This document shows positions 1-44,343 of a stretch of 64,000 bases of DNA, piece after piece; the first letter of the stretch is position 1, and every line of letters starts with the position of its first letter. Origin of the DNA: Acidobacteriota bacterium (GTDB taxonomy: Bacteria > Acidobacteriota > Thermoanaerobaculia > Thermoanaerobaculales > Thermoanaerobaculaceae); contig JACQZW010000034.1 in the NCBI GenBank assembly GCA_016213675.1, forward strand, positions 143,403 through 207,402. The letters are read 5' to 3'. Below the pieces are notes generated by a model. That model was not told where the DNA came from and did no database searches. It worked only from the letters and a program-made list of their open reading frames with translations. Both the position numbers and the translations under genes were made by a program.

Positions 1-129
1 CTGGGCGCCGTCCGCCGCTTCGTCGACGATCTCGATGTCGTCGGTCCGCGAGAACAGGCGGCGCATCACGGCACGCACCGTGGACGAGTCGTCCACCAGC
101 ACCACCCGGATCTTGGCCGGGCCGGGCAT
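1..129 (-). CDS. cheB: CheB-like response regulator, N-terminal receiver domain (5' portion only; gene continues beyond window start)
   Basis: Reverse-complement of 1-129 translates MPGPAKIRVVLVDDSSTVRAVMRRLFSRTDDIEIVDEAADGA, the IRVLxVDDS...DIEVVGxAxDG pattern typical of CheB N-termini. ATG overlaps the cheA stop (ATGA) and sits last in the che operon. Confidence 0.55.
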   Translation of the reverse strand, partial: MPGPAKIRVVLVDDSSTVRAVMRRLFSRTDDIEIVDEAADGAQ

Positions 130-2174
130 CAGCGCCCCCCGAGCCGCCGCACCAGGCCGACCAGCTCGGTCGCGTCGAGTGCCTGCTTGGTGAGATACGC
201 GTCGGCGCCTGCCTCGAGGCCTTTCAGCCGGTCTTCCGGGCGTTCGCGGGTGGAGACCACGACGATGGGGAGCTGCGCCAGGTGCGGAATGGTCCGGAGG
301 TGACGGGTGAGCTCGAATCCATCCATCCCCGGCATCTCGATGTCGGTGACCAGGCAGTCGAATGGCTCCTCCGAGAGCCGGGCCAACGCCTCTCCGGCAT
401 CGCCGGCGGCCGCGACGTCGATGCCGGCGTCCTCGAGGAGCCGGCGCTCCATCTCGCGGGTGACCAGCGAGTCGTCGACCAGCAGCACGCGGACGCGGTG
501 CTGGTGAGCCCGGGCGGAAACGATCGGCGTCAGTCGCACCGCCTCTCGCAGGGCCAGGGCCGATGGCGAGAGCACCCCGACGGGCTCTCCGTCCGAGAGC
601 AGCGCCACACCGTCGAGGAGCGCCGTGACCGTTGCCCTGGTCGTGACCGGCCGGACCAGGACTTCCTCCTCGCCGGTCACCGCGTCGACGGCCACGGCCA
701 GGCCCTGGCCGGCCGCCTCGCCCTCGAGCAGGAGCTGCACGCCAGCCGGGGTCTCCCCGAAGAGCTGGGCCAGCGGCACGAACGGCACGAGGCGGTCGCC
801 GAGGTTGGCGAGGAACCGCCCGTCCCGCTCGACCACGGCGGCGGCCGGTAGTCGCCGCGCCGACCGGATCACCCCTCGCGGCAACGCGAAGCGCAGCCGT
901 CCGGCGCGCAGGAGCATTACCGTCTCGCCGCGCCGGGCCGCCGGCACCTCGAGGGTCACGGTGGTTCCCTGTCCCGGTTGCGAGGCGATCGAGACGCTGC
1001 CGCCGACCCGGCCCGCGGCGGCGGCGACGGCGTCGAGGCCGACGCCCCGGCCGGAAACCTCCGAAACCTCATCGCGCGTCGAGAAGTCCGGGGTGAAGAG
1101 CAGCCGCAGCGCCTCGTCGCGGGACAAGGAGCGGGCATCGTCGGCGTCGATCACGCCCCGGGCCACGGCAACCGCGACGATTCGCGCCGGGTCGATGCCG
1201 GCGCCGTCGTCGGCGACGACGATCCGCACCCGTGCACCCATCGCCGCGGCCTCGATGCGCACCGTCCCGTCCCGGGGCTTGCCCGCGGCCACGCGGACCT
1301 CCGGCGGCTCGATCCCGTGGTCGACCGCATTGCGCACGGTGTGGAGCAGCGCCTCCTCGAGCTCGCGGGCGATGCGACGGTCGAGCCGGGTTCCGTCCCC
1401 GCGGGTGACGACCTCGATCTCGCGGCCGAGGGTGCGGGCGAGCTCGCGCGCATGCCGCGCCAGGGTGTGGAAAAAGCCACTGAGGGGTTGGACCTGCAGC
1501 GAGAGGATGGTCTCGAGGTGCGACTCCGCCAGCCGGCGCAGGCGGCGCTGACCGGCCTCGATCTCCAGCGCCTGGCGCCGGATCGACGTGGCCAGGACCG
1601 CGAGCACCTGACCGGGCTGGTCCTCGTGCACGGCCTGCTCGGCGAGCCGAGCAAGCTCGGTGAGCCGCGCCGGGAAGGCAGCAGCCCCGAGGGAGAGGAT
1701 GCGCAGCCGGGTGGCGCGGTCGGCCATCGCGTCGACCGCCGCGGAGTCGAGCCTAATCTCCCCGCTCGCGGGATTCACCATTGCGGGAGTCGGGCTCACG
1801 GCCGCCTGTCCGGTGGGTGCCGTCCCTTCCGGCGCCCAGCGCAGGTCGTCGAGTAGGGCCGCATCGGGTTCGGGATCGGCGCCGCCGGCGATCGCCTCGA
1901 CCATCGCGGCGAGCCGGTCGGCGACCCTCGTGAGCAGCTCCGCGAGTCCCGGCGGCGAGGCCAGCAACGCACCCTCGGCGGCGTGGCACAGCTCGGCGAG
2001 CGGAGCCAGCCGCAGCATCCGTGCGGCCCCCTTGAGCGTGTGGAGCTCCCGCTTGACCTCGACGCTCGCCTTCTCGTCGCTGCCGAGCCGGCCGGCCACG
2101 TCGGCGAGATGCTCGACACGCCCCCGCGCCTCGCTGACGAACAGTGGCAGGAGGTCGACGAAGTCAGGATCCAT
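129..2174 (-). CDS. cheA: Chemotaxis histidine kinase CheA fused to a C-terminal receiver domain (CheA-CheY hybrid, FrzE/CheA3-like)
   Basis: HPt-like N-terminus (MDPDFVDLLPLFVSEARGRVEHL...HTLKGAARM), a P3/HATPase region (HTVRNAVDHGIE, DDGAGID, GRGVGLD), a CheW-like P5 region and a terminal REC domain (VLLVDDS...DIEMPGMDG...GADAYLTKQ). The ORF-table start at 2300 is probably an upstream extension; M43 at 2174 fits the HPt start. Confidence 0.85.
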   Translation of the reverse strand: MDPDFVDLLPLFVSEARGRVEHLADVAGRLGSDEKASVEVKRELHTLKGAARMLRLAPLAELCHAAEGALLASPPGLAELLTRVADRLAAMVEAIAGGADPEPDAALLDDLRWAPEGTAPTGQAAVSPTPAMVNPASGEIRLDSAAVDAMADRATRLRILSLGAAAFPARLTELARLAEQAVHEDQPGQVLAVLATSIRRQALEIEAGQRRLRRLAESHLETILSLQVQPLSGFFHTLARHARELARTLGREIEVVTRGDGTRLDRRIARELEEALLHTVRNAVDHGIEPPEVRVAAGKPRDGTVRIEAAAMGARVRIVVADDGAGIDPARIVAVAVARGVIDADDARSLSRDEALRLLFTPDFSTRDEVSEVSGRGVGLDAVAAAAGRVGGSVSIASQPGQGTTVTLEVPAARRGETVMLLRAGRLRFALPRGVIRSARRLPAAAVVERDGRFLANLGDRLVPFVPLAQLFGETPAGVQLLLEGEAAGQGLAVAVDAVTGEEEVLVRPVTTRATVTALLDGVALLSDGEPVGVLSPSALALREAVRLTPIVSARAHQHRVRVLLVDDSLVTREMERRLLEDAGIDVAAAGDAGEALARLSEEPFDCLVTDIEMPGMDGFELTRHLRTIPHLAQLPIVVVSTRERPEDRLKGLEAGADAYLTKQALDATELVGLVRRLGGR

Positions 2175-2351
2175 GCCGCCGCCCACCCGCCCGGGGAGAG
2201 GGGAGAGGATAGAGGGAAGGAATTCGGGCGCTCGTGCTGCGCGAAGCCGCTGCTCGAAGAGTGGTCGGAGCGAGGGCGAGAGAATGACCACCAACGGCAA
2301 GCAGGGGTGCTGTACCTCTCCCCTCTTCCCTCAGCCCCCTCTCCTGTTCCA

Positions 2352-3983
2352 TCAGATCTTCGACCAGTCGCGGACGTTCACGTCGAAGGCGAACACCGCG
2401 GCGATCCGGTCCTTCACGTCGCGCACCGGCGTGGCGACCGTGAACGTCGGTTCGTGCGTCAGGATCGATTCGTAGATCGGCGTGAGGATCGTCCGCTGCT
2501 CGCGCATCGCCGACTGGAACCACGGGCGCTCACGGAACTCGATACCCGCCTTGACGCCCGACGCCGTGACCCGCTCGGCCGGGATCGCGGGGCTGAAGGC
2601 CATGGTCATCAACGTCCCCTGGACGTCGGTGAGGTAGGCCATCTCGGTGAACGGGTGCTCCTTGATCATCGCCTCGAGCAGTCCGGTCGTTGCCTCGAGG
2701 TGGGCGACCCGCGCGCTGCACTCCTCCGACCAGCGCTCGGCCAGGTGCTTGAGCGACCGCGGCGAGTCGAGGTGGAACGACTGCGTGAGGAGCTGGATCG
2801 ACAGGGCGACGTGGTTGAGACGATCGGCCGCGCCGGAGAAGTGCTTGAGCCCCTCCGCCATCCGCTGGATCACCTGGCTGACCTCCTTCAGCGTGAGGAC
2901 GACCTGATCGGAGGCGGTGCGCTGCTGCTGGGTCGCCAGGGAGATCTCGCGGGCGGCCCGGGCGGTGTCGGCCAGGGCGCCGCGAAGCTCCTCGATGACC
3001 GCGGCCGAGGCCCGGGCGCGCTCGAGCACCCGCGACGCCTCTTTGCTCCCTTCCTCGGTGGCGACGACCGTGGCCCGGATCGACCCGGCGAACTCGTCGA
3101 GCAGGCCGCGCACCGACTCGGCCGACTCGTGCGAGCGCTGGGCCAGGCGCCGGACCTCCTCGGCGACCACCGAGAAGCGACGGCCGTGCTCGCCGGCGGC
3201 GGCGGCCTCGATGGCGGCGTTGAGCGACAGGATGTGGGTTTCCTGGGCGATCTCGGTGATCAGGTCGAGGACGCGGTAGATCTCCTTGGAGCGGGTGCCG
3301 AGCTGATCGGCACGGGCGGCGATCCCGGTGATGCGTTTCTGCACCTCCTCGACGCCCCGCAGTGCCTCGTCGACCGAGGACACGCCGAGATCGCCGCTCT
3401 GCTCGGAGCGAGCCGCCAGCTCGGCCTGGGACGACGCGTTGGCGGCGATCTGCGCGGCGGTGCGCGCCAGCTCCTCCATGGTCGCGGTGATCTCGACGAC
3501 CGCGGCCGCCTGCTGCGACGAGCCGGAGGCCAGCTCGGAGGCGGTGGCGTGGACGGTGTTGCCGGCCGCCGCCACCTCGATGGAGCTGTTCTGGATCTGC
3601 TGGACCAGCGCACCCAGCGCGCGGGCGGCATTGGCGAACGAGGCGGCGAAGCGCTCGGGGAGCTCCTTCGCGTTGGCCAGCGTGCCGGCCACGTTCCCCG
3701 ACTGCAGGTGCTCGAGGCCCCGAGCGAAGGCGGCGTCCGCGCGGGCCTGGTCGGCCCGCTCCGCCGCCAGGCTTCGGGCGGCGGCCCGCTGTGGCAGGTA
3801 CACGGCCGCGAGGTACGCCCCGTAGAGCACGAGGCCGATCGGGACGATGGTACTCATCAGCCAGGTGGGCGCGCCGTGGGCGTGGGCGATGGCCACCGTC
3901 ACGGTGCCGACACCGCCGATCGCGGTGACAAGAAGGAGCCCTGCCGTCGGGCCGTCCAACCACGTCGAGTCTTGTCGGGGCAT
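2352..3983 (-). CDS. Methyl-accepting chemotaxis protein with two N-terminal TM helices, an MA signalling domain and a C-terminal Cache/PAS-like sensory domain
   Basis: Highly conserved MCP hairpin tip (ETHILSLNAAIEAAAAGEHGRRFSVVAEEVRRLAQRS). Hydrophobic N-terminus (LLLVTAIGGVGTVTV...IVPIGLVLYGAYLAAVYL). The C-terminal ~130 aa carry a Cache-like signature (RPWFQSA...LTPIYESILTHEPTFTVATPVRD...AAVFAFDVNV). The ORF start at 4373 is trimmed to M131 at 3983, placing the start 18 nt past the stop of the next gene. Confidence 0.8.
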   Translation of the reverse strand: MPRQDSTWLDGPTAGLLLVTAIGGVGTVTVAIAHAHGAPTWLMSTIVPIGLVLYGAYLAAVYLPQRAAARSLAAERADQARADAAFARGLEHLQSGNVAGTLANAKELPERFAASFANAARALGALVQQIQNSSIEVAAAGNTVHATASELASGSSQQAAAVVEITATMEELARTAAQIAANASSQAELAARSEQSGDLGVSSVDEALRGVEEVQKRITGIAARADQLGTRSKEIYRVLDLITEIAQETHILSLNAAIEAAAAGEHGRRFSVVAEEVRRLAQRSHESAESVRGLLDEFAGSIRATVVATEEGSKEASRVLERARASAAVIEELRGALADTARAAREISLATQQQRTASDQVVLTLKEVSQVIQRMAEGLKHFSGAADRLNHVALSIQLLTQSFHLDSPRSLKHLAERWSEECSARVAHLEATTGLLEAMIKEHPFTEMAYLTDVQGTLMTMAFSPAIPAERVTASGVKAGIEFRERPWFQSAMREQRTILTPIYESILTHEPTFTVATPVRDVKDRIAAVFAFDVNVRDWSKI

Positions 3984-4000
3984 GCCTTCCCTCGCTTTCC

Positions 4001-4291
4001 TCACTCCAGCAGGGCGCGCGGAGGATGGTCCGAATCGACGACCACCAGCGGCAGCCCGCCATGAACCGCCACACCTCGGCAGTGTTCCTGCCAGTAGCGC
4101 CGCATCATCGCGCCGACCGGCCGGATCTCCAGGTCGCGGACCAACCCCACCACCTCGTCGGCCAACAGGCTCGTGGAGCGCAACCCGACCCGCACGCCGG
4201 CGGCCGAAGCGTCGAGCCCGACCACCTGCTCTCGGGGTACGCCCCACAGCGTGAGCCCGCGCCGCAACAGCAGGACCGTCGCCTCGCTCAC
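4001..4291 (-). CDS. Short CheW-like coupling protein (truncated CheW domain)
   Basis: 96 aa with weak CheW-like features (LLLRRGLTLWGVPREQVVG...LPLVVVDS). It overlaps the upstream cheW by ATGA and lies within the che operon. Confidence 0.4.
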   Translation of the reverse strand: MSEATVLLLRRGLTLWGVPREQVVGLDASAAGVRVGLRSTSLLADEVVGLVRDLEIRPVGAMMRRYWQEHCRGVAVHGGLPLVVVDSDHPPRALLE

Positions 4292-4728
4292 GGTGACGCT
4301 CGCAGCGCTTCCAGGTCGATGATGCGGACCAGTCGCCCGCCGATCGTCGTTTCGCCCCGGACCAGCCCGGCACCTCCGGTCACGATGCCCGAGGTCGGAA
4401 CCGCGACGATCTCGACGGCGGCATCGGCGGCGAGGCCGATCAGTTCACGAGCCTCCGCCGAACCGGCCGCCACGACGATCGTCACCGGATAGACGGCTTT
4501 TGCGCCGCTCGGGGCGTTGAGCAGCCGCGCCAGGTCGAGGATCGCGAGCGGTTCGCCGCCGAACTCCGCGAGACCGACGAGCTCGGGGCCGGCCCCGGGC
4601 AGTGGGTGGGTCGGCAGTGCCCTCACGACGCGGCGCACGACCGCGATCGGTACCGCGCAGAGGTCGTCACCGGCTTGGACCAGCAGGCAGGGAACACTGC
4701 CGCCGCCACGCTCTTCCGCGGCTTTCAT
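4288..4728 (-). CDS. cheW: Chemotaxis coupling protein CheW
   Basis: 146 aa with the typical CheW pattern (LLVQAGDDLCAVPIAVVRRVV...GLAEFGGEPLAILDLARLL...RLVRIIDLEAL). It is first in the operon of genes from 4728 down to 1. Confidence 0.8.
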   Translation of the reverse strand: MKAAEERGGGSVPCLLVQAGDDLCAVPIAVVRRVVRALPTHPLPGAGPELVGLAEFGGEPLAILDLARLLNAPSGAKAVYPVTIVVAAGSAEARELIGLAADAAVEIVAVPTSGIVTGGAGLVRGETTIGGRLVRIIDLEALRASP

Positions 4729-4858
4729 GATACGAGAATAGCATCAGGGTGCCAGGGGACAGGGGACAGGGGACGCCGGGACACGGGGACGTGGAACAGG
4801 AAACAGGAAACGGGATGCAAGGGCGGGACCTCCTGGCTCCCGCGGCGGGCTCGACCGG

Positions 4859-6334
4859 CTAGCGAGGGGGCTCGGAGCCGTCGGCGGTGCCGAGAAGGGC
4901 GAGGAGGTCGTCCCGTCGCAGCTTGCCGCGGTCGGAGACCGGCAGCTCGTCGACCAGGACGACGCGGCGCGGCAGCTTGTGCGGGGCCAGACGGTCCCGG
5001 CAGGCCGACAGGACGGCACGCACGGTGAGGTTCGCGCCGGGCTCGACCGCGACGACGGCGGCAACCAGGTCTCCGCGGTGGCGGTCGGGCAGTCCGGTCA
5101 CGACGGCGCCGGCCACCCCGGGGATCGCCTCGAGGACGCGGCGCACCTCGTCGGGATGGACCTTCTTTCCGGCGACGTTGAGGGTCTCGCCGATCCGGCC
5201 CGTCAGCGTCAGCTTACCCTCGGCATCGAACCGCCCGAGGTCGCCGGTCAGGAAGACGCCCGGGGCGAGCACGAGCTCCTCCGGCGCGGGGATGGCTGCC
5301 AGCGCCACCGCGCGCGACCGCACGCGCACCCGGCCCTCGGCGCCGTCGGGCAGGACCCTTCCTTCGGCGTCGACGAGCTCGACTTCGACGCGCGCCATCG
5401 GCGTCCCCACCGCACCGGAGGCGTGAGACGGTGCGCTCGAGCGGTCGTAGGTGATCCCTCCGCACTCGCTCGAACCGTAGAACACGTGCACCTTGCGACC
5501 CGTCGCAGCGTGGAACGCGGCCGCGTCGCGCGGGGCGAGCGGTGCGCCGGCGGCGAGGACCACGCGGAGGCGCGGAAACTCCGGCAACCCGGGGAGCGTC
5601 GCCAGCGCCCGGACCATCGCGGGGACGGCGGGGAAGTGGGCGACGTCCGAGGCGGTGAGCGTGGCGGCAAGCGCGGCCGGGAGGGCGCAGGTCGGGAACG
5701 TCTGCGGCGTGCCTGTCAGCAGGAGCGGCAGCAGGCACGACCCGAGACCGTAGGAGTGGGTGAGAGGAATGGCCGCAAGGGTGACATCCCCACCCCCGAA
5801 GCCCATCGTTCGCATGATCTGCACGCCGTCGGCGGCGAGTTGGCGGGCCGACAGGGCGATCGCCTTGGGGAGGCCCGAGGAGCCGGACGTCAACTTGAGG
5901 ACGGCCGTGCCCTCAGGCAGGGCGACCACCGGCAGGTCGCGCTGCAGGCCGAGCGCGAGCCCGTCCCCCTCCCAGACGGTCTGGCCGGCGATGCGCTCCG
6001 GCGTCGCCAGGACGGCGCCGGCGCCGATGGCCACCGCACAACGTCGGAGCTCGTCGGCCGGAGCCGAGGCGTCGACCAGCGCCACCGGCACGCCGATCCG
6101 GCGGAGCGCCAGGAACGCGCGCACGAATCGCTCGCCGTTCGGCAGCGACAGCACGACCGGGCGCGCCCCGGGCACGCGCGGCCGAAGCTCGCCGGAGAAC
6201 TCGACAGCGGCCCGGGCGAGGGCCGAGCGGGTCGCGGCCGGGCGACCGTCCGGACCGAGGAGCGCGACCGACTCACCGTCGACGCGAGCCAGGGAGAAGA
6301 AGCGCCTGACGAGTGGGCAACGGGTCTCAGGCAC
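4859..6334 (-). CDS. AMP-dependent synthetase/ligase (acyl-CoA synthetase superfamily)
   Basis: AMP-binding motif TSGSSGLPK, YGSSECGG and a C-terminal GKLRRDDL. It overlaps the upstream gene by 8 nt. Confidence 0.8.
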   Translation of the reverse strand: MPETRCPLVRRFFSLARVDGESVALLGPDGRPAATRSALARAAVEFSGELRPRVPGARPVVLSLPNGERFVRAFLALRRIGVPVALVDASAPADELRRCAVAIGAGAVLATPERIAGQTVWEGDGLALGLQRDLPVVALPEGTAVLKLTSGSSGLPKAIALSARQLAADGVQIMRTMGFGGGDVTLAAIPLTHSYGLGSCLLPLLLTGTPQTFPTCALPAALAATLTASDVAHFPAVPAMVRALATLPGLPEFPRLRVVLAAGAPLAPRDAAAFHAATGRKVHVFYGSSECGGITYDRSSAPSHASGAVGTPMARVEVELVDAEGRVLPDGAEGRVRVRSRAVALAAIPAPEELVLAPGVFLTGDLGRFDAEGKLTLTGRIGETLNVAGKKVHPDEVRRVLEAIPGVAGAVVTGLPDRHRGDLVAAVVAVEPGANLTVRAVLSACRDRLAPHKLPRRVVLVDELPVSDRGKLRRDDLLALLGTADGSEPPR

Positions 6335-7325
6335 CCCCGCCTCGCAGGCGGGCGAGCATCGCCTCGGCGGTGGACTGAACGCGCTGTTGGTAGAACTTCT
6401 GGAGCACCTCGCGGACCTCGGGCCACCTGGTCATGATGCTCTCGAGGTCCTCGTGGGAGATCTCGACGACCGTGGCGCGGTCCGACGCGACGATGGTCGC
6501 CGTGCGGGGGCGGCCGGTGAGCATTGCGACCTCCCCGAAGAACTCGCCGGGGCCGAGGGTGGCGAGCTGGAGCGGTCTGCCCGCGGTGTCGTGGGTGTGG
6601 ACGTCGACCGCCCCGTCGGCGATGAGGAACATCGCAGTGCCGGGCTCCCCCTCGCGCATGATCGTCTCGCCGGGCGCGAAGCTCAGGACCGACGTGGAGG
6701 AGAGGAGCTGGTCGAGCGCCGGCCGGGGGAACGCGGCGAAGAACCTCCCGGCGTCGCGCTCCTTCGCCGCCTGCTCGGCCGACACGGACTCGAACGGCTC
6801 CGCCGGGGGCACCGCGGCGACGGCCGGGGCTGCGACCGGCGGCGCCGGCGCCTCGTCCTCGTCGACGACCACGACGTCCTCATCCTCGGCCACTGGCGGG
6901 TGGGCGAACTGCGCGGCGGGCGCGGGTGCCGTCTTGTCGGCACCGCCAGCCGGAACCGCGGCGCGCTCGAGTCGTTCGCGGGAGGCCTTCTCGACCTCCT
7001 GCTGGGCGGTGATCAGGTCGGCAAGCTCGTCGGTGACTTCCTTGCGCGCCGGGTCCAGACGCAGGATCTTGTTGGTCACCGCGATCGCCCGGGCGTAGAA
7101 GCCCTCTTTGGCGTAGTGCTGCGCGAGCTGCCGATAGACGTAGATCGCCTGCTCCCGGTCGCCGGCGAGCCCGAGGATCTCGGCCTGCCGCAGGAGGAGG
7201 TTGAAGCTCTCCGGCCGGCGCTTGATCTCGTCCGTGATCGCTTCTAAGGCGAGCCCGTACTCACGACGGACCAGGTACTGGTCGAGCTGGTCGAAACGTG
7301 GTTTCGGTTTGAACATCATTGCCAC
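6327..7325 (-). CDS. TPR-like N-terminal domain fused to a cyclic-nucleotide-binding (cNMP) domain
   Basis: N-terminal helical repeats (YGLALEAITDEIKRRPESFNLLLRQAEILGLAGDREQAIYVYRQLAQHYAKEGFYARAIAV), an Ala/Pro/Glu-rich acidic linker and a C-terminal cNMP-binding signature (FLIADGAVDV...GPGEFFGEVAMLTGRPRTATIVA). Confidence 0.7.
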   Translation of the reverse strand: MAMMFKPKPRFDQLDQYLVRREYGLALEAITDEIKRRPESFNLLLRQAEILGLAGDREQAIYVYRQLAQHYAKEGFYARAIAVTNKILRLDPARKEVTDELADLITAQQEVEKASRERLERAAVPAGGADKTAPAPAAQFAHPPVAEDEDVVVVDEDEAPAPPVAAPAVAAVPPAEPFESVSAEQAAKERDAGRFFAAFPRPALDQLLSSTSVLSFAPGETIMREGEPGTAMFLIADGAVDVHTHDTAGRPLQLATLGPGEFFGEVAMLTGRPRTATIVASDRATVVEISHEDLESIMTRWPEVREVLQKFYQQRVQSTAEAMLARLRGGGA

Positions 7326-8653
7326 CCCAGTCGGTCCGCGACGGCCCGAGCGGCCGCGCGCGCCTCGCGACGGACTGCAGCCGCATCGGCCGAGACGAGC
7401 TCGCCGTCACGCACGACGACACGACCGTCGACGATCACGTGGCGGACGCTCGCGACCCCACCACCGTACACCACCATGGCCGCCGGGTCACCGCCCGGTT
7501 CCATCGCCCAGGTGTCGGCGCGGAGCACCACGACGTCGGCTCGACGACCTGGCTGGAGCGAGCCGATCTCGTCGCCCAGTCCGATCGCTGCTGCGCCTCG
7601 GCAGGTCGCGAGCTCGAGCACTGTCCACGGGTCGAGGGCGCACGCGCCGTAGCGGAGGTTGTGCAGGGTTCCGGCCAGCGCCATCTCGTGAAACACCGAG
7701 AGGCGGTTGTTGCAGGGCGGACCGTCGGCCCCGAGCCCGATCCGGGCACCTGCGGCCAGCAGTCGCGGGACGTCGGCGATCCCGGACGCAAGCTTGAGGT
7801 TCGCTCCCGGGCAGTGGGCAACTCCAGTGGCATGCGCGGCGAGGAGCCCGATTTCGTGGTCCTCGAGATGCACGCAGTGGGCAAGCACCGTGTCGCTGCC
7901 GCCGATACCCAAATCGGCCAGAAACTCGACGTTACCCATCCCGCTGACCTCGCGCACGAGCGCGGTCTCGACCGGGTTCTCGCTCGCGTGGGTGTGAAGC
8001 AGGTAGCCGTGCCGGCGGGCCAGGCTCACTGCACCGGCCATCAGCTCGCGGGTGCAGGACAGGACGAAACGGGGCGCGACGGCGTAGCGCAGGCGCCCGG
8101 CGGCTGCGCCGTGCCAGCGGGCGCCGAGCCGTTCTGCCTCGGCCAAGGACTCGTCGGTATCCTCGAGAAGCCCCGGCGGCACGCCTTCGCCGACGTCCAT
8201 GTGGCACTTTCCGGACGCGAACCGGATGCCCAGCTCGTCGGCCGCCGCGAAGATCCCATCCTGATCGTGAGTCGTTCCCATGTCGAGGGCGGTCGTGGTG
8301 CCCCCGGCGAGCAGCTCGGCGATGCCCAGACGTGCGGCTGCGCCGACCTCGCCGCGCGAGAGAGCGGCCTCGTACGGCCAGATGCGCTCCCGCAGCCAGG
8401 GCAGTAGGGCCAGCCCCTCCGCCCGGTTGCGGACCAGGCTCTGGACGACGTGCACGTGGGCCTGAACGAAGCCGGGAAGGACCAGCGCATCCGTCGCGTC
8501 GACGATCTCGGCGCCCGCGGGAGCCGGGATGGTCGCCGCGACCTCGGCCACCCTGCCGTCCGCGAGCCGGACATCCGCGGTGGCCCATCGGCGCGTGCCG
8601 TCGAGCGGTACCACCGTCCCACCGCGAACGACAACCGTCCCCTGACTCGTCAT
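7316..8653 (-). CDS. Amidohydrolase-family metal-dependent deaminase/chlorohydrolase (MtaD/guanine deaminase/SsnA-like)
   Basis: GFVQAHVHVVQS HxH metal-binding motif and HTHASE, with a TIM-barrel amidohydrolase layout. ORF-table start 8689 is trimmed to M13 (MTSQGTVVVRGGTVV). Confidence 0.75.
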   Translation of the reverse strand: MTSQGTVVVRGGTVVPLDGTRRWATADVRLADGRVAEVAATIPAPAGAEIVDATDALVLPGFVQAHVHVVQSLVRNRAEGLALLPWLRERIWPYEAALSRGEVGAAARLGIAELLAGGTTTALDMGTTHDQDGIFAAADELGIRFASGKCHMDVGEGVPPGLLEDTDESLAEAERLGARWHGAAAGRLRYAVAPRFVLSCTRELMAGAVSLARRHGYLLHTHASENPVETALVREVSGMGNVEFLADLGIGGSDTVLAHCVHLEDHEIGLLAAHATGVAHCPGANLKLASGIADVPRLLAAGARIGLGADGPPCNNRLSVFHEMALAGTLHNLRYGACALDPWTVLELATCRGAAAIGLGDEIGSLQPGRRADVVVLRADTWAMEPGGDPAAMVVYGGGVASVRHVIVDGRVVVRDGELVSADAAAVRREARAAARAVADRLGWQ

Positions 8654-8729
8654 GCGGACGATTCTCGGAACACGGCAGCGGCGTGTCAAGGCGAGGCGGT
8701 CCGGACCCGGGCGCCGCTATACTCGGCCG

Positions 8730-10112
8730 GTGGGCGGCAATCCTGCGCGGTTCGGCCTCGGTCACCTGGTCGTTTTCGTGGTCGTCGCGCTGGTCCTGAA
8801 CGCGCAGTTCACCTGGTGGGTCGTTCACTCCCTCCGCGAGAACCGGGGACGGCTGGACTTGGAGCGCTCGGTGATCCTGGTGGGCGCTCAGGTTGCCGCG
8901 TTGAAGCTGGAGCTGGCCGCCGAGGGTGCCGCACGGCGACTCGTCCAATCGTCGCCCGGGGTGATCCCGGCCGCGCTGCCGCCCTTCGTCGAAGTCCGGG
9001 TCGTCGACGACGCACCGGTTACGTCCGGCTGGAGCGCCCGGGACGGAGGACCGGCGTTTGCGTGGCCGGTGGCGCGGGGTCGCACCGCGCTGGCGGTGCT
9101 CGACCCGCTGGCGCCCCACCGGTGGCTGGCGGAGATCGACGACACGCTCCATCTGGTCGAGGCGGGAACGGGCAGCGCCGATCTACCGAGGATCAGCCTC
9201 GCCGAGCCGCTCGAACGCTGGGCCGTCGTCCCGGACGAGGGACGGTGGCGCGAAGGTGTCGCGCGCTACCGTCGCCGGGTCGTCCTGGTCCTCGGCGAGG
9301 GCGTGCTTTTCGTCGCGGCGATGGTCAGCGCGGTCGCCCTGCTGTGGACGGTGTTGCGTCGCGAGGGCGCCCGCGAGAGGCAGCACCAGAACTTCGTGTC
9401 CGCGGTCACGCACGAGCTGAAGACGCCGATCGCCGGGATCCGGCTGGCACTTGAAACCGTCCTGTCCGGGCGCGTGGATACCGAGGGCCGTGACCGGTTT
9501 CTCCGCAACGCGCTGGCGGACTCGGAGCGACTCGCCGATCTGGTCGAGAAGGTCCTCGAGGTGACACGCTACGCCGGCGGCGCCCACCGACTCCACATCG
9601 AGGTCTCCGACCTCTCGGGACTGGTCGAGGAGGAGGTCATGGCCGCCGAGCGCCGGGCTGCCGCCCGCGGAATCCGCCTCGAGTCCGACATCGTCGCGGA
9701 CGTGCGAGCACCGTTCGATGCGGAGTCGCTCGGGATCGTGCTCTCGAACCTTGTCGAGAACGCGCTGAAGTACGCCCAGGGAGAGCCGCCCGAGGTGAAG
9801 GTGACCCTCGGCGTGGAGCACGGCCTCGCGGTCATTACGGTGCGCGACAACGGCGTCGGGATCGCCCCCGAGGAATTGGACAAGGTCTTCGCGCCTTTCT
9901 ACAGGTCGACCGACGAAGTGACGCGTCGTACCCCGGGGACTGGAATCGGGCTCTACGTGGCACGAGAGATCGTGGTGGCCCACGGTGGGCATCTGACGGC
10001 GGCGAGCGAAGGCCGCGGTCAGGGGGCGATGTTCAGGCTCGCTCTGCCGGGAGCGAGCGTGCTCCCCGTGGACGACCTTTCAGAGTACGATGTCGAGAAC
10101 GAAACGAGGTGA
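8730..10112 (+). CDS. Sensor histidine kinase (two TM segments, HisKA and HATPase_c)
   Basis: H-box AVTHELKTPIAGI; N/G boxes (NLVENALKYA, DNGVGI, GTGIGL); TM helices flank a periplasmic loop. Start uncertain: ATG 8652 or in-frame GTG 8730 just before the first TM. Confidence 0.75.
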   Translation: MGGNPARFGLGHLVVFVVVALVLNAQFTWWVVHSLRENRGRLDLERSVILVGAQVAALKLELAAEGAARRLVQSSPGVIPAALPPFVEVRVVDDAPVTSGWSARDGGPAFAWPVARGRTALAVLDPLAPHRWLAEIDDTLHLVEAGTGSADLPRISLAEPLERWAVVPDEGRWREGVARYRRRVVLVLGEGVLFVAAMVSAVALLWTVLRREGARERQHQNFVSAVTHELKTPIAGIRLALETVLSGRVDTEGRDRFLRNALADSERLADLVEKVLEVTRYAGGAHRLHIEVSDLSGLVEEEVMAAERRAAARGIRLESDIVADVRAPFDAESLGIVLSNLVENALKYAQGEPPEVKVTLGVEHGLAVITVRDNGVGIAPEELDKVFAPFYRSTDEVTRRTPGTGIGLYVAREIVVAHGGHLTAASEGRGQGAMFRLALPGASVLPVDDLSEYDVENETR

Positions 10113-10115
10113 GAC

Positions 10116-10826
10116 ATGGCGAGCCGGATCCTGGTCGTCGAAGACGAGAAGCACCTGGCTGAGGCGTTGGCGCACAACCTCAAGTTCGAAGGGTACGAGG
10201 CGACCGTGGCCGGGGATGGGGAGGCCGCCCTCGACCGTGTCGCGGCAGAGGACTACGACCTGCTCGTGCTCGACGTCATGCTGCCGGGGATCTCCGGATT
10301 CGACGTTTGCGAGCGGCTGCGCGAGTCGGGCAACCGGGTGCCGGTGCTGTTCCTGACGGCCCGTACGACCGACGCGGACCGCCTGCAGGGGCTCCGGCAC
10401 GGTGGCGACGACTACATGACCAAGCCGTTCCTCCTCGAGGAACTGGTTCTCCGCATCAAGGGGATCCTGCGCCGGCAGGAGTGGTACCAGACGCCGGTCG
10501 CCGAGCGCGGCATCTTCAAGTTCGGCGACAGCGAGGTCAACTTCCGCACCTTCAAGGCCAAGGGCCCGGGCGGCGAGGTCCAGCTCACCGAGAAGGAGTG
10601 CATGCTGATGAAGCTGATGGTCGAGCGTCAGGGCCAGGTCGTCTCCCGGGAGCTCATACTCGAGCGTGTCTGGGGCTACAAGTACGGCTCCTCGTCGCGG
10701 ACCATCGACAACTTCATCGTCCGGCTGCGCAGGTATTTCGAGGCCGATCCGCGGCGGCCCAAGTACATCCACTCGGTGCGGGGCGTCGGCTACCGCTTCA
10801 CTCCCGAGGGAGAGACGCAGACCTGA
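10116..10826 (+). CDS. OmpR/PhoB-family response regulator
   Basis: REC domain (ILVVEDE...DLLVLDVMLPGISG...YMTKPF) plus a winged-helix C-terminus (VRGVGYRF). It starts 4 nt after the kinase stop. Confidence 0.9.
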   Translation: MASRILVVEDEKHLAEALAHNLKFEGYEATVAGDGEAALDRVAAEDYDLLVLDVMLPGISGFDVCERLRESGNRVPVLFLTARTTDADRLQGLRHGGDDYMTKPFLLEELVLRIKGILRRQEWYQTPVAERGIFKFGDSEVNFRTFKAKGPGGEVQLTEKECMLMKLMVERQGQVVSRELILERVWGYKYGSSSRTIDNFIVRLRRYFEADPRRPKYIHSVRGVGYRFTPEGETQT

Positions 10827-11055
10827 CCCCGTAGTCCCGGCGTTGCTGCCCACCCTCACGCACATGGTGGCTCGTCCCGGAGATCCGGTCGTGGCGCCGG
10901 GGCCGCCGCCGGTTTGACGAAGCCGGTGTGTCTATACTCTCTGTGTTCAAGGAGTTGGACGGACCTACGCGGCCGAGCTTCGTAGCCCGGTCGCCCCCCG
11001 GAGGTGACACCCGTCACGAACCCGACCGTTCCAGGGGAGATGTCTTCTCAAGTGT

Positions 11056-13289: not shown

Positions 13290-14951
13290 GTGACGACTGA
13301 ACGACGGGTGATACGGGCGCCTCGAGGCGCCGGGTTGTCGTGTAAGGGTTGGCCACAGGAAGCGGCGCTTCGCATGCTCATGAACAACCTCGATCCCGAG
13401 GTGGCCGAGCGCCCCGAGGACCTCGTGGTGTACGGCGGCTCCGGGAAGGCTGCCCGCAACTGGGAGTGCTTCGACGCGATCGTCCGCTCGCTGCGGGAGC
13501 TCGAGGCCGACGAGACGCTCCTCGTCCAGTCCGGCAAGCCCGTCGGGGTGTTCCACACGCACGCGGACGCTCCGAGGGTCCTGATCGCGAACGCGAACCT
13601 CGTGCCGTACTGGGCGACCGGCGACGAGTTCCGCCGTCTGGAGGCGCTCGGGTTGACGATGTTCGGACAGATGACCGCGGGCTCGTGGATCTACATCGGC
13701 ACGCAGGGGATCCTCCAGGGCACCTACGAGTGTTTTGCCGCTGCCGCGCGCCAGCACTTCGGCTCGTCGCTGCGGGGCCGCCTCGTCGTGACCGCGGGAC
13801 TCGGGGGCATGGGCGGTGCCCAGCCGCTGGCCGCGACGATGAACGATGCGACCTTTCTGGCCGCCGAGGTGGACGAGGCGCGCATCGACAAGCGCCTCGC
13901 GACCCGCTACGTCGACGAGAAGTTCCTCGACGTCGACGTGGCCATCGACCGCGCCCTGGATCTGAAGGCGGCCGGCGAGGCCCGCTCGATCGGGGTGGTC
14001 GCCAACGCCGCCGACCTCCTCGCCCGGCTGATCACCCGGGGGATCGTTCCCGACGTCCTGACCGACCAGACCTCGGCCCACGACGAGCTGAACGGGTACG
14101 TTCCCAATCGGATGAGCTACGCGGCGGCCTTGGAGCTGCGCCGGCAGGACCCTGACCGCTACAAGGCCGAGGCCTTCCGGACCATGGCCGAGCACATGCG
14201 GGCGCTGCTCGAGCTGCAGCGGCGCGGCGCCGTGACGTTCGACTACGGCAACAACCTCCGGGGTCAGGCCGTCAAGGTCGGAGTGGCCGACGCCTTCGAC
14301 GTCGTCGGCTTCGTGCCGCTCTACATCCGTCCGCTCTTCTGCGAGGGCAAGGGCCCGTTCCGCTGGGCGGCGCTCTCTGGGGATCCGCAGGACATCCTGC
14401 AGACCGACCGGGCGGTCCTCGAGCTGTTTCCCGAGGACGAGGGGTTGGCCAGGTGGATCCGCATGGCCGAAGAACGGGTCCAGTTCCAGGGGCTGCCCGC
14501 CCGGATCTGCTGGCTGGGCTACGGGGAGCGCGCCCGGGCGGGGCTGGCGTTCAACGACCTGGTGGCGTCGGGGAAGGTGTCCGCCCCCATCGTCATCGGC
14601 CGCGATCACCTCGACTCCGGGTCGGTCGCGTCACCGAACCGGGAGACGGAGGGCATGAAGGACGGCTCGGACGCGATCGGCGACTGGCCCATTCTCAACG
14701 CGCTGCTCAACACGGCGGCCGGTGCCACCTGGGTGTCGTTCCATCACGGGGGAGGCGTCGGGATCGGCTACGCGTTGCACGCCGGGATGGTCGTCGTAGC
14801 GGATGGCACCCCCGAGGCCGCGCGACGCCTCGAGCGGGTGCTCACCACGGACCCCGGCACCGGCGTCATGCGTCACGTGGACGCCGGCTACGAGGAGGCG
14901 ATCGACTGCGCGAGGAGCCGCGGGATCATTATCCCGATGCTCGGGCGCTGA
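13290..14951 (+). CDS. hutU: Urocanate hydratase
   Basis: Strong HutU similarity throughout ([62 protein letters not shown]). GTG start at 13290 gives 553 aa, typical for HutU. Confidence 0.9.
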
Positions 14952-15028
14952 GCTGGTCCGGCCTGGTCGCCGGTCTGGCCGCGACGCTGGCAGCCGGCCC
15001 GTGGCCTGCGCTCGGGACAGCTTCGTTG

Positions 15029-18000
15029 GTGTGGCGGGCGCCGCTCGTGCTCGCCGGCCTCGGCTTCGCGTGGCGGCGACTCGGCTGGCGCACGCTCGCC
15101 CTGGCGCTCCCGGCGGTCCTGGCGATCGGAATGGACGCGACCCTGCCGGCCCGGCGCGGCGATACCGTGCTGGCCGACCGGCTGGCGCTCGAGGTCGTGG
15201 CGATGCAGCGCGGCCTCGGAGCCATCGCCGACACGGAGTCGCTACGCCACCTGCTGTCCAGCGGCGGCGGCGAGGCGGAGCCCGAGGCTCCTTTCCGGGT
15301 CCTCGACGAGGCGGTGTCGGGGTTGCCGCTCCGACTCGACGCCTTCGTGATGATCGACGAGCGCGGGCAGCCGATCGGCTGGGTGGGCGAGAGGAGCCGC
15401 CTCCCGCTTCGCCTGCGCCCGCTCGGCGACCGCACGGTCTCCATCGAGCCCGGGATCGGTGCGGTCTGGCTGTGGTGGCGGGAGCCGGTCTTCGAGACCG
15501 GCCGCCCGGTCGGCGCGTTGTTGGCGGGTAGCCGTCTCCCGGAGGAAGGTGGGCGCCGGATCCTCGGAGCCTGGGCGGGACGGGCCGCCAAGGCCCGCCC
15601 CGTCCTGCAGGGCGGGCAGCCGGTGCGTGATCCGACCGGGGCCTGGTTGCTGGGCCTCGAGGTCGTGCCGGATTCCCCCGCGCTGTGGAGCGCGGGCGGG
15701 CTCGCCGCGATCGTGGGGGCCGCCTTGCTGGCGCTCCTCGGCGTCGGCCGCAGGCGAGAGGTGCTCGCCCTGGGCGCACTCCTCGGGGCCCTCCTGCTGC
15801 CGTGGCCTACTCCGGCATGGCTCGCCGCGCCGGCCCTCCTCGGCCTTGCGATCCTCGCGCATTGGCTGCCCGGGCGGCGACCGTTCCGGTTCGCGGCCAT
15901 CGTGGCTGTCGGAGCCCTGGGGTGGGTCGCGGCCGGTCTCATCGGTGAGCTCGGCGTCAACGTGGTTCCCGAGGACCTGCTGGCTCCCGGAGTGTTGCGC
16001 TTCGCCGTGATGATGGCGGCGACGCTCCTGCTGTGGGCCATCCCTCCTGCTGGCGGCAGCCTGCCCGGACCGTTGCGACTGCTGTGCTGGCTGCCGCTCG
16101 GGATCGGAGTCATCCGGGGCGAGCCGAGTCTCCTCGGTATCGGCCTCGCTGTTGCGCTCCTGGGAGGGATCCGGGGCCGGAGTGCCTTCCTCGCGGCTGT
16201 GGCGGCTGCGATGGTCCTGGTCGGTAGTGAGGACGCGGCCCGTTCGCGCGAGCTGGTCGGGAGGACCGAGGCGACCCTGGCTCGGCTGGACAGGGCGGAG
16301 GCCCCCGCCCGCGCGGTCTTGGCGCGTCCGCCCGAGGCGGCCCTCGTCGCCCTGACCAGGCTGCAAGCTGGGGAGCGGCAGGTGGTCCTCGGTCGACTCT
16401 CGCGGTGGCTGGAAGTGGAAGAGGTCCTTCCCGGCACTTCCCTGATCCTCCTCGATCCGGGAGGAAACGCCGCCGCGACGTGGGGCGAGACGACGGAGGC
16501 CTCCCCGTTGCCCGAGCCTGAGCTGGCCGCCCGGCTGCTTCCAGGCGGTTGGCAATTGGTGCTGCGCACGCCGACGCCGCCCAACGACCTGGTCGCGGCA
16601 CTCAGCGCCGCCGGCATCGACGGACCCCTGGCCGTGTTCGACAGGGCGGGAGAGGCGGTCGGCCGAGGCGGTACGTTCCGTCCGCTCTCGCCGGGTCGGG
16701 TGGGCAAGGCGCTGGCGACCGGGCGAAGCTGGGGCACGATCGGTGTCGGTGAGCGGGAGTACCGTGCCTACCTGCGCTCGCGGGGCGACGTCGTCCTGGC
16801 GGTACCGTGGATCCGCCGTCCGCCGGCCGAGTCGGCGCTGGCGGTCGGTGCACTCGGGTTGTGGGTCGCGATCCCCCTGGTCATCTGGGAGCGCCGCCGC
16901 CGATTCGGTGCCTGGTGGTCCAGGCGACACACCGTCGCCGGTCGCGTGCAAGCCCTGACCGTGCTGGCCGCCGTGGCTCCCGTGCTGGTGCTCGCCAACC
17001 TCCTGCCCCAGCAGTGGACGCGGCAGCGGGAGCGCGGTCGGCTGGAGGTGGCGCGGGCGATCGGGGGTCCGATCAGCGACGCGGGTGCCGACCGCGACAT
17101 GGGCTGGCTGGTCCGACAGAGCGGCGCCATCGTCGCGACCTACCGGGGCGGCGTGCTCGTGTGGTGCACGCGGCCGGACCTGGCCAGCGCGGGCGACGTG
17201 CCACTGATGCCGCCGGAGGGCGCCTTCGTGCGGGCCGTGCGCGGGTGGCGGGAGCCCGTCCTGGTCGGGAGCTCGCAAACCGACATCTTCGTTCCGACCC
17301 GGATGGCCGGCGAGCCGGCGGTGGTCGGCGTTCTGGGCCTGCGCGTGGCGGGCCTCGCCAGCGGCCCGTCACCGGGCGAGTGGTTCGCGGTGATGGGCGT
17401 GCTTGCGTTGCTCCTGGCCCTGGGCGGCGCCGAGCGGCTGGGCGAGCGAGTCACCGGACCCCTGAGCGCGCTCGTCCAGGCCGCGCAGCGCCTTCAGAGG
17501 GGCGAGCCGGTGCCGGAGCTGACTGTCGGGGGTGAGGAGGACGTCGCGGCGTTGGGGAGGGCGTTCGAAGCGATGGCCGGCACGGTTCAGCGTCGCGAGG
17601 AGGAGCTCAGGCGTGAGCGCGACCTGCTCGAGCGGGTCCTCGGCACGCTTTCGGCGGCGGTCATCGTGGTGGATCAGCGGGGCTCGGTCGAGCTTGCCAA
17701 CCCCGCAGGCCGCCTCCTCCTGGGTGAGAGGAATCACGTCGAGGCGTTGGCTGAGTCGTTCGGTGCCGAGATGGCGGCGCTGACGTCCCGCGCCGCCGGT
17801 GGACAGACCGCCACGACCTCGCTTCGCCCGGCGAGTGAGCCGGATGCGGTGTGGCAGGCCACGGCCCAGCCGCTGACCGGCGCGGTCGGCAGGGTGCTCC
17901 TGGTCATGGAGGACGTCTCGGTTGTCGCGCGTGCGCAGCGCCTGGCCTCGTTGGCCGAGGCAGCTCGCATCGTCGCCCATGAGGTCAAGAACCCGCTCAC

Positions 18001-44290: not shown

Positions 44291-44343
44291 CCTGAGCCTC
44301 AACCCTCAGGCCCCAAGCCTCAAGCCTCAAGCCCCAAGCCCCG
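44291..44343. repeat. Imperfect tandem heptamer repeat (CAAGCCY, about 6-7 copies) between convergent genes
   Basis: cctgagcctcaaccctcaggccccaagcctcaagcctcaagccccaagcccc, read directly in the parA-SDR intergenic spacer. Confidence 0.6.

Follow-up and report, generated by a model that had tools for sequence, protein, structure and literature searches.

Wsp-like chemosensory operon in Frz-like gene order beside a probably separate three-gene operon in Thermoanaerobaculaceae-like Acidobacteriota

The locus and its question

The left end of a 64,000-nucleotide stretch of DNA from an Acidobacteriota bacterium (GenBank assembly GCA_016213675.1, contig JACQZW010000034.1; the whole stretch is termed the window here) carries chemotaxis (che) genes on the minus strand. 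Directly upstream of them lie three co-directional genes for an amidohydrolase, a protein with tetratricopeptide repeats (TPR) and a cyclic-nucleotide-binding (cNMP) domain, and an AMP-dependent ligase. An earlier note on this DNA, made from the letters alone, placed all these genes in one apparent operon and proposed an accessory chemosensory pathway wired to a metabolic or second-messenger signal. The locus raises two questions: which class of pathway the che genes encode, and whether the three neighbors are part of it. The account preferred here, with good confidence, is that of a Wsp-like, Frz-ordered che operon with its own promoter and an output through cyclic di-GMP (c-di-GMP), next to a separate neighbor operon.

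In this account, window positions 1 to 4728 (minus strand) would be the promoter-proximal part of a seven-gene operon, cheW, orf96, mcp, cheA-REC, cheB, REC-(GAF-like)-GGDEF, and cheR-TPR, where REC stands for a receiver domain. The receptor, anchored in the membrane, with hardly any periplasmic loop and with a C-terminal PDC/Cache-like domain in the cytoplasm, would control the CheA-REC kinase via CheW. Phosphate from CheA would pass to the REC-GGDEF protein and govern c-di-GMP synthesis, and CheB together with CheR-TPR would provide methylation-based adaptation. This signaling scheme is drawn from knowledge of the protein families. Transcription of the che operon would begin from its own extended -10 promoter, at or beside the cheW ATG, so that the mRNA would be leaderless. 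The amidohydrolase, TPR-cNMP, and ligase genes would form a separate, translationally coupled, leaderless operon with a canonical promoter, divergent from a gene pair for a histidine kinase (HK) and an OmpR-type response regulator (RR). Read from sequence, two adjacent, separately promoted, leaderless units are the probable arrangement in Thermoanaerobaculaceae-like Acidobacteriota. The features of the region are as follows (aa, amino acids; nt, nucleotides).

1–129, minus strand: start of cheB, 43 codons of receiver domain, from the translation and a weak Response_reg match; the gene exits the window
129–2174, minus strand: cheA-REC hybrid kinase, 681 aa, with Hpt (HTLKG, His45), HATPase_c, P5/CheW-like, and C-terminal receiver domains (Pfam and motif check)
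2175–2351, minus strand: MCP-cheA intergenic region, 177 nt, with inverted tandem heptamer arrays at both ends
2352–3983, minus strand: methyl-accepting protein (MCP), 543 aa (Pfam MCPsignal, 2.3e-30)
4001–4291, minus strand: orf96, small conserved protein at the FrzB position, 96 codons (position and conservation)
4288–4728, minus strand: cheW, 146 aa, opening the che operon (Pfam CheW, 1e-18)
4729–4858, minus strand: ligase-cheW intergenic region, 130 nt, with heptamer arrays at 4751–4815
4735–4743, minus strand: extended -10 promoter-like box TGCTATTCT, followed by the 6-nt spacer CGTATC and the cheW ATG (motif conservation)
4859–6334, minus strand: class I adenylate-forming enzyme (acyl/aryl-CoA-ligase-like), 491 aa (Pfam AMP-binding and AMP-binding_C)
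6327–7316, minus strand: TPR and cyclic-nucleotide-binding protein, 329 aa, or 332 aa from GTG 7325 (Pfam cNMP_binding, 1.8e-23, and weak TPR matches)
7316–8653, minus strand: amidohydrolase, 445 aa, related to nucleoside/nucleobase deaminases and opening the three-gene operon (Pfam Amidohydro_1, 7e-63, in the ORF spanning 7316–8689)
8661–8689, minus strand: putative sigma-70-type promoter TTGACA-17-GAGAAT, 7 nt before ATG 8653 (conserved motif)
8718–10112, plus strand: divergent histidine kinase, GTG 8730, 460 aa, with the -10 box TATACT at 8718–8723
10116–10826, plus strand: OmpR-family response regulator, cotranscribed with the histidine kinase

Pfam domains and the translations of the open reading frames (ORFs) bear out the gene positions and the minus-strand order of the earlier note. 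The overlaps it described among the three upstream genes are present as well: 8 nt between the TPR-cNMP and ligase genes, and 1 nt (ATG 7316) or 10 nt (GTG 7325) between the amidohydrolase and TPR-cNMP genes. The gap between ligase and cheW is short, as stated, with an actual length of 130 nt rather than 131 nt. The start codon of cheB at 129 overlaps the cheA stop, and cheW can start only at 4728 because an in-frame stop lies 5 codons upstream of its ATG. The histidine kinase probably starts at GTG 8730 rather than ATG 8652; its ortholog in the related locus L095 (compared loci carry L numbers) also has 460 aa. The G+C content of the region is 67 to 75%. The TPR-cNMP protein is 100% identical to P0001, a protein of an NCBI "Acidobacteria bacterium" metagenome-assembled genome (MAG), and the nearest CheA relatives among species-representative genomes are those of Acidobacteriota/Thermoanaerobaculia MAGs.

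The che operon beyond the window edge

The earlier note described the che set as lacking cheR and cheY. Their absence is an artifact of where the window stops, namely within cheB. The 2.7-kb JGI contig L082, retrieved through exact matching of window bases 1 to 50, shows 94% nucleotide identity over 1151 nt and reaches 1.5 kb past the edge. Its CheB is full length with 362 aa (305.8 bits versus the NCBIfam NF001965 cut-off of 293) and is followed by a receiver protein 64% identical to the REC-GAF-GGDEF protein of L003. The 95-kb JGI contig L095 is collinear with window 1–10828 at 92.7% nucleotide identity over 10.8 kb. It carries the amidohydrolase, TPR-cNMP, and ligase genes, a 99-nt gap, CheW, orf96, MCP, and a 681-aa CheA-REC, and continues with a 362-aa CheB, a 481-aa REC-GGDEF protein, a 462-aa CheR with a TPR tail, and a Ser/Thr kinase. 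The REC fragment of L082 is 98% identical to the REC-GGDEF protein of L095.

A REC-GGDEF gene directly follows cheB in L095, L084, L088, L090, L092, L097, L003, and L002. The GGDEF domains of six orthologs contain an intact GGEEF motif and an intact RxxD I-site five residues upstream, and CheR proteins with TPR matches are encoded in L095, L003, L004, and L097. Seen through these relatives, the region beyond position 1 thus contains a cheR, in the form of a CheR-TPR fusion, and an output regulator of the REC-GGDEF type; a single-domain CheY and a CheD are not seen there. In L083:15478-18499, on a long-read contig, cheA and cheB are broken into odd gene calls on DNA that runs collinear with the window and is 86% identical to it. 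Such splits are probably assembly frameshifts rather than true pseudogenes.

Class of the pathway

The 681-aa CheA combines Hpt, HATPase_c, CheW-like, and Response_reg domains in one protein (Pfam), with an HTLKG phospho-histidine motif. The C-terminal Response_reg domain supports the FrzE-like CheA with a fused receiver that had been proposed. Among the next-best CheA matches beyond the phylum are many from Pseudomonas clusters with MCP..CheR..CheA-REC, CheB, and REC-GGDEF, which is the Wsp order, and the CheA is 35 to 38% identical to that of Pseudomonas wsp clusters over the kinase core. Its closest relative outside the phylum is found in the actinomycete locus L007, which contains MCP, CheA, CheB, REC-GGDEF, and CheR. 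CheR-TPR fusions and multidomain response regulators mark "alternative cellular function" (ACF) pathways (PMC3447774). By domain architecture and neighborhood, the che genes are assigned to an accessory, nonflagellar, Wsp-like ACF pathway in Frz-like gene order. The accessory rather than flagellar nature suggested earlier is supported by the CheR-TPR and REC-GGDEF proteins of the relatives and by the lack of flagellar genes.

If the genes belonged to an ordinary flagellar chemotaxis operon, cheR and cheY would be expected right past the window edge, and cheR does indeed adjoin the window. This cheR encodes a CheR-TPR fusion, however, and all receivers are fused ones (CheA-REC, CheB, REC-GGDEF). 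Neither a single-domain CheY nor CheZ, CheC, CheD, CheV, or flagellar genes are found in the window region or in any 20-kb locus carrying the conserved gene block described below, which makes a flagellar operon barely conceivable.

Promoters and the junction between the two units

In 9/9 lineages (window, L095, L083, L084, L086, L088, L090, L092, and L097), the motif TGnTAnnCT stands 5 to 7 nt before the cheW start. The rest of the ligase-cheW gap, which varies between 31 and 203 nt (31 nt in L090, 36 nt in L088, 52 nt in L097, 99 nt in L095), is unalignable between lineages. Among the relatives that do not carry the three upstream genes, L004 and L005 have the same box, and L006 retains the -10 hexamer TATGCT with AG replacing the TG before it. 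The box is probably an extended -10 promoter whose position would let transcription begin at the start codon itself, giving a leaderless mRNA. Since che operons without the three genes keep it, the che genes are regarded as an autonomous transcription unit.

The amidohydrolase ATG is preceded at a distance of 7 to 9 nt by TTGACA-17-NAGAAT in 8 loci, with TTGACA-17-CACAAT-6-GTG in L097, and the divergent histidine kinase has TATACT 6 nt before its GTG. The first genes of these units have no Shine-Dalgarno sequence, and the internal genes have a G-rich one. A TAnnnT box 5 to 8 nt before a candidate start codon also occurs in 8 further window ORFs of coding-like composition, and 6 of these 8 candidate starts are no more than 40 codons away from the in-frame stop that precedes them. 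The boxes point to widespread leaderless transcription in this genome. Starts with a TAnnnT box are located at 8730(+), 18721(+), 25550(-), 42025(+), 45764(-), 59866(+), and 61101(-); at 61101(-) the candidate start is 62 codons downstream of the in-frame stop, and most others are near the 5' end of the ORF.

The 130-nt gap contains no terminator (fold z-score of 0.07, no stable hairpin) and no Rfam element, c-di-GMP riboswitches included. Because no terminator separates the units, read-through may add to che expression. The earlier note had named a terminator and a promoter between 4728 and 4859 as one finding that would speak against a common operon; a promoter-like box is present there and a terminator is not. 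Two other promoter candidates were rejected. A sigma-54 promoter built on TGGCAC at 4748–4753 (minus strand) has a GG-to-GC spacing one base short of the canonical GG-N10-GC, and this TGGCAC is also absent in L084, L086, L088, L090, and L092. The sigma-70 match of the scanner, CTGGCA-17-TATCAT, overlaps the ATG and was set aside for the conserved TGCTATTCT box 6 nt upstream.

Conserved neighborhood

Loci carrying the block were reached via homologs of the TPR-cNMP protein, orf96, or the ligase, and nine look-ups yielded eight further species-level lineages besides the window. A CheA-based locus scan, which uses exact peptide patterns, missed block-carrying genomes. The block consists of the RR and HK genes in divergent orientation, then amidohydrolase, TPR-cNMP, and ligase, then CheW through CheR, usually followed by a Ser/Thr kinase. 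The co-directional three-gene neighbor of the che genes pointed out earlier is conserved in 9/9 lineages sampled. All 10 of the 10 retrievable contigs with TPR-cNMP, ligase, or orf96 homologs show the block context, including the 4-kb Logan contig L001 found via the window's cheW. The identity across the other lineages is 47 to 81% for the TPR-cNMP protein and 58 to 92% for the ligase. Within the block, conservation is highest in the HK-RR pair, whose OmpR-type RR is 87 to 97% identical in all block carriers, and three unrelated gene sets occur beyond this pair. Of the single operon proposed earlier, the adjacency is conserved, but a conserved promoter-like box lies between ligase and cheW.

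Two explanations of this adjacency have to be weighed. The three genes and the che genes may form one functional unit, largely cotranscribed from the amidohydrolase promoter, that feeds a cyclic-nucleotide or metabolic signal into the pathway or tunes it. The block is intact from HK-RR to cheR in 9/9 lineages (TPR-cNMP, 47 to 100% identity including the window's match P0001; ligase, 58 to 92%), and the junction is kept despite the three different gene sets beyond HK-RR. The gaps of 31, 36, and 52 nt in L090, L088, and L097 without a terminator, together with an invariant cNMP site, point in the same direction. Against this stand the conserved cheW promoter box, which persists even at the 31-nt gap and recurs in operons without the three genes, and the result that 0/80 CheA-related loci outside the lineage carry any of the three genes within 10 kb. 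L003 lacks them although its CheA (63% identity) is as close as those of the block carriers (54 to 65%). The Ser/Thr kinase past cheR is also conserved, and the region may be merely a stable syntenic segment. One functional unit, largely cotranscribed, is therefore considered possible but somewhat doubtful.

Alternatively, the adjacency may reflect descent only, the three genes being a nucleoside-salvage or acyl-activation operon, possibly under the divergent HK-RR pair, with no chemosensory role. The separate conserved promoters, the occurrence of the che operon without the three genes, and the HK-RR pair as the best-conserved block part fit this explanation, as do an amidohydrolase from a housekeeping-type deaminase family and a ligase that is a generic class I adenylating enzyme. 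It accounts less well for a junction that stays intact in 9/9 lineages despite rearrangements just outside the block, for the block context of all 10 retrievable homolog contigs, and for a signaling-type cNMP-binding protein without an output domain between two enzymes. Descent without a chemosensory role is a serious candidate, short of being the expected answer. Functional coupling of the three genes to the che pathway remains plausible as judged from the neighborhood.

The account of two separately promoted units with a c-di-GMP output has several points against it. Adjacency in 9/9 lineages with gaps down to 31 to 36 nt also fits a single functional unit, and the cheW box, called a promoter from motif position and conservation, may be the binding site of a regulator instead. 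The GGDEF and CheR genes lie outside the window and are attributed to this exact genome from relatives that are 92.7 to 94% identical. An adjacent REC-GGDEF gene is absent in L086, itself a block carrier, and in L004 to L006, so that the c-di-GMP output is not universal in the family. Finally, the second scaffold of Wsp systems (WspD-like) has no clear counterpart: orf96 reaches a probability of 6.8% in the hhalign comparison with the local CheW family and no significant Foldseek match.

In L004, L005, and L006, cheW is preceded by a gene for a protein of ~440 to 480 aa with a weak cobW/GTPase match, to which L004 adds one for a membrane protein of 292 aa (stretches L004:5652-7877, L005:34-1470, and L006:4447-5766). 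The accessory genes before the che operon thus vary between relatives, with the cobW-like gene in place of the three genes in these loci. A GMP synthase is found further upstream in L004 and L006. At the other end, the Ser/Thr kinase after cheR usually has a long TPR region (L095:18093-19001, L084:20967-, L088:20464-, L097:13206-), and in L095 it is followed by a gene with an ACPS domain (4'-phosphopantetheinyl transferase) and a radical SAM gene. The conserved block may extend beyond the che genes to this kinase.

The three upstream proteins

The amidohydrolase scores 495 bits against the NCBIfam model for 5'-deoxyadenosine deaminase, just below the cut-off of 522, and its PDB relatives include 8-oxoguanine deaminase and a deaminase of methylthioadenosine and S-adenosylhomocysteine (MTA/SAH deaminase). 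The ligase scores under every NCBIfam equivalog cut-off. Its nearest solved structures are oxalate-, malonyl-, feruloyl-, and fatty-acyl-CoA ligases, and its translation shows the motifs TSGSSGLPK, YGSSE, TGD, and GK. It is a generic class I adenylating enzyme.

In the TPR-cNMP protein, a variable linker of low complexity joins the N-terminal TPR domain to a cNMP-binding domain, whose nearest solved counterparts are the cyclic-nucleotide-binding domains of PKG and PKA. The phosphate-binding cassette GxFFGEV..G.PRTA is invariant in 25 homologs. No DNA-binding or enzymatic domain was found in this protein, which therefore most likely acts via protein contacts.

The WspC-type CheR binds SAH ~25 times more tightly than S-adenosylmethionine (SAM), with values of 1.7 and 43 µM, and a TPR partner for CheR-TPR proteins has been sought but not found (PMC3447774). 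Both observations have been counted here in favor of one functional unit: because a WspC-type CheR holds its product SAH tightly, there is a rationale for a neighbor resembling deaminases of SAH, MTA, or 5'-deoxyadenosine (5'-dA). By inference, a local SAH-type deaminase could relieve product inhibition of CheR. Taken further, the three genes would be a dedicated input or feedback module in which the TPR-cNMP protein uses TPR contacts to link cAMP or cGMP levels with the array or with CheR-TPR, the deaminase locally removes SAH (or 5'-dA/MTA) and so relieves CheR inhibition, and the adenylating enzyme makes or consumes the cytoplasmic ligand of the PDC domain. Together they would form a node of cross talk between cyclic mononucleotides and c-di-GMP. 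A module of such detail is considered unlikely.

The receptor and orf96

The MCP has two predicted N-terminal transmembrane helices with a loop of ~5 residues between them, followed by the MCPsignal domain. Its C-terminal part matches dCache_1 (1.2e-7) and MCP-like_PDC_1 at residues 462 to 538 (Pfam). Given the topology of the receptor, this sensor-like PDC/Cache domain is cytoplasmic. The position of a PDC/Cache-like domain after the signaling domain (window 2352–2780, MCP residues ~400 to 543) is an unusual placement. The architecture with a C-terminal PDC/Cache-like domain is kept in every ortholog, including those without the three upstream genes. L003 contains a second, paralogous MCP of the same layout (L003:5874-7361).

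The position and sequence of orf96 are conserved in most lineages, with absences in L088 and L089, and its position parallels the CheW/short-CheW pair in L068 and L049 as well as FrzA/FrzB. It has no match in Pfam or NCBIfam. The similarity to the FrzB-like protein of L068 falls short of significance in the hhalign comparison, as does the comparison with the local CheW family cited above. An AlphaFold model built from 8 sequences is poor (pLDDT of 54.5), and its Foldseek search against the PDB gives nothing significant, with CheW/P5 chains among the weak matches. A hidden Markov model of CheW gives orf96 8.5 to 10.9 bits, a score reached by 1 to 3 of 1400 shuffled sequences (top ~0.2%), which hints at CheW kinship but is suggestive only; orf96 is possibly a CheW-derived remnant. 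Of the two CheW genes named in the earlier note, cheW at 4288–4728 is thus confirmed and orf96 is a real conserved gene, whose CheW identity is a reasonable guess only, as all tests are subthreshold.

Comparison with known systems

The locus shares with the Wsp system of Pseudomonas (WspA to WspF and WspR) the membrane MCP, the CheW scaffold, a CheA with a fused receiver (WspE-like), and a CheB (WspF-like). The relatives add a CheR-TPR (WspC-like) and a REC-GGDEF output protein (WspR-like) with GG(D/E)EF and an RxxD I-site. It differs in gene order, which is cheW-orf96-mcp-cheA-cheB-GGDEF-cheR here and MCP..CheR..CheA-CheB-GGDEF in the Pseudomonas loci. The Wsp gene order is wspA-B-C-D-E-F-R. 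Further differences are the output protein of 474 to 506 aa, whose middle part of ~190 residues is weakly GAF-like (E = 1.2e-3 in L003), a receptor with a minimal periplasmic loop and the additional C-terminal PDC/Cache-like domain, and the host phylum Acidobacteriota.

The sequence of a CheW gene, a short gene, an MCP gene, and a gene for a CheA-receiver hybrid resembles the Frz system of Myxococcus xanthus (FrzA, FrzB, FrzCD, FrzE, FrzG, and FrzF), whose operon opens with frzA and then frzB, a truncated CheW (PMC6952110). The Myxococcota Frz-like locus L068 encodes a CheW of 171 aa, a truncated CheW-like protein of 120 aa, a soluble MCP of 407 aa, a CheA of 762 aa, CheB, and CheR. The order CheB then CheR-TPR is common to L068 and the present locus, in which a REC-GGDEF gene separates cheB from cheR. 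Unlike FrzCD, a soluble receptor bound to the nucleoid, the MCP here has two transmembrane helices. Control of motility as in Frz, with gliding or pilus reversals driven via the CheA-fused receiver and the GGDEF protein as a side branch, would match this gene order and the lack of a GGDEF gene in L086 and L004 to L006. No FrzZ-like dual-receiver gene is seen at the locus or in related loci, however, and no motility genes are found among the 10 large window ORFs scanned or in the flanks of the block loci. In most lineages, the nearest relatives included, the operon does contain the REC-GGDEF gene with intact catalytic and I-site motifs. A Frz-type role is accordingly rated as improbable, and the Wsp-like assignment is retained.

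The CheR-TPR clusters described by Munoz-Martinez et al. in 2012 (PMC3447774) likewise combine a CheR with a short C-terminal TPR region and a REC-GGDEF protein. Acidobacteria are not mentioned in their survey, nor does it describe a conserved neighbor operon that encodes a deaminase, an adenylating enzyme, and a TPR-cNMP protein. No publication on this set of genes turned up in a literature search. Wsp/ACF systems that include CheR-TPR and REC-GGDEF are already known and widespread. New are the Acidobacteriota variant with a Frz-like order, a C-terminal cytoplasmic PDC domain in the receptor, and orf96, as well as the conserved neighbor operon with an output-less cNMP-binding TPR protein and the located promoter boxes.

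Heptamer repeat arrays and other window content

The MCP-cheA spacer contains two arms of tandem heptamers, one of the GGGGAGA type beside the MCP stop and a complementary C-rich one before cheA. In five species the arms measure 25 to 31 nt and are 74 to 95% complementary, and the repeat unit differs between them (GGGGAGA, GGGGACA, GGGGTCC, GTGGTTC, and CAGTCAA). L088 and L097 have no MCP-cheA spacer at all. The copies of the spacer are as follows.

Window 2175–2351
L095:11938-12120
L084:14870-15016
L090:14752-14860
L092:14742-14931

The fold z-score of the window copy, 0.60, is not significant, so the case for a structure is based on the complementarity of the arms in five species and not on folding energy. 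The arms may form an intercistronic mRNA hairpin that sets the ratio of receptor to kinase expression.

Other intergenic heptamer arrays are located at window 4751–4815 and 44295–44342, L090:1293-1325 and 4420-4449, L092:1133-1165, and L004:3679-3712 and 5311-5339. Examples are GGGGACA x3, AACAGGA x3, and AGCCTCA x6.6, with a species-specific unit reused at several loci. These arrays resemble the heptamer repeats of Xanthomonas and Nostoc (Rehm et al. 2015, PMC4692102) and the cyanobacterial short tandemly repeated repetitive (STRR) sequences in that tandem heptamers lie between co-directional genes. As in the repeats of PMC4692102, which are G-rich and G-quadruplex prone, the sense strand is G-rich just after the stop codon and C-rich just before the next gene. 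In contrast to those repeats, the arrays here form complementary arms and have a species-specific unit, and some units (CAGTCAA and GTGGTTC) are not G-rich.

Elsewhere in the window, an ORF of 1382 aa at 14453–18601 (plus strand) has a C-terminal HATPase_c as its sole recognized domain, with ~1270 residues unannotated. It is a very large sensor kinase, and its equivalent in L083 has 1212 aa.

Significance

Wsp/ACF pathways are well studied in Pseudomonas, apart from the signal they sense and the partner of the CheR TPR domain. The present analysis defines a block of 13 to 14 genes in Thermoanaerobaculaceae-like Acidobacteriota in which a Wsp/ACF pathway stands together with two enzymes and a cNMP-binding TPR protein that has no output domain. 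The block is present in a MAG classified as Thermoanaerobaculum, so that work on a cultured relative may be feasible. If the neighbors are not linked to the pathway, the gene inventory is still corrected, as cheR and an output regulator exist, three conserved, apparently leaderless promoters are located, and the locus resolves into two probable transcription units. If a functional link exists, cross talk from cAMP or cGMP to c-di-GMP could be studied in a tractable setting, and the block would supply a candidate TPR partner for CheR-TPR.

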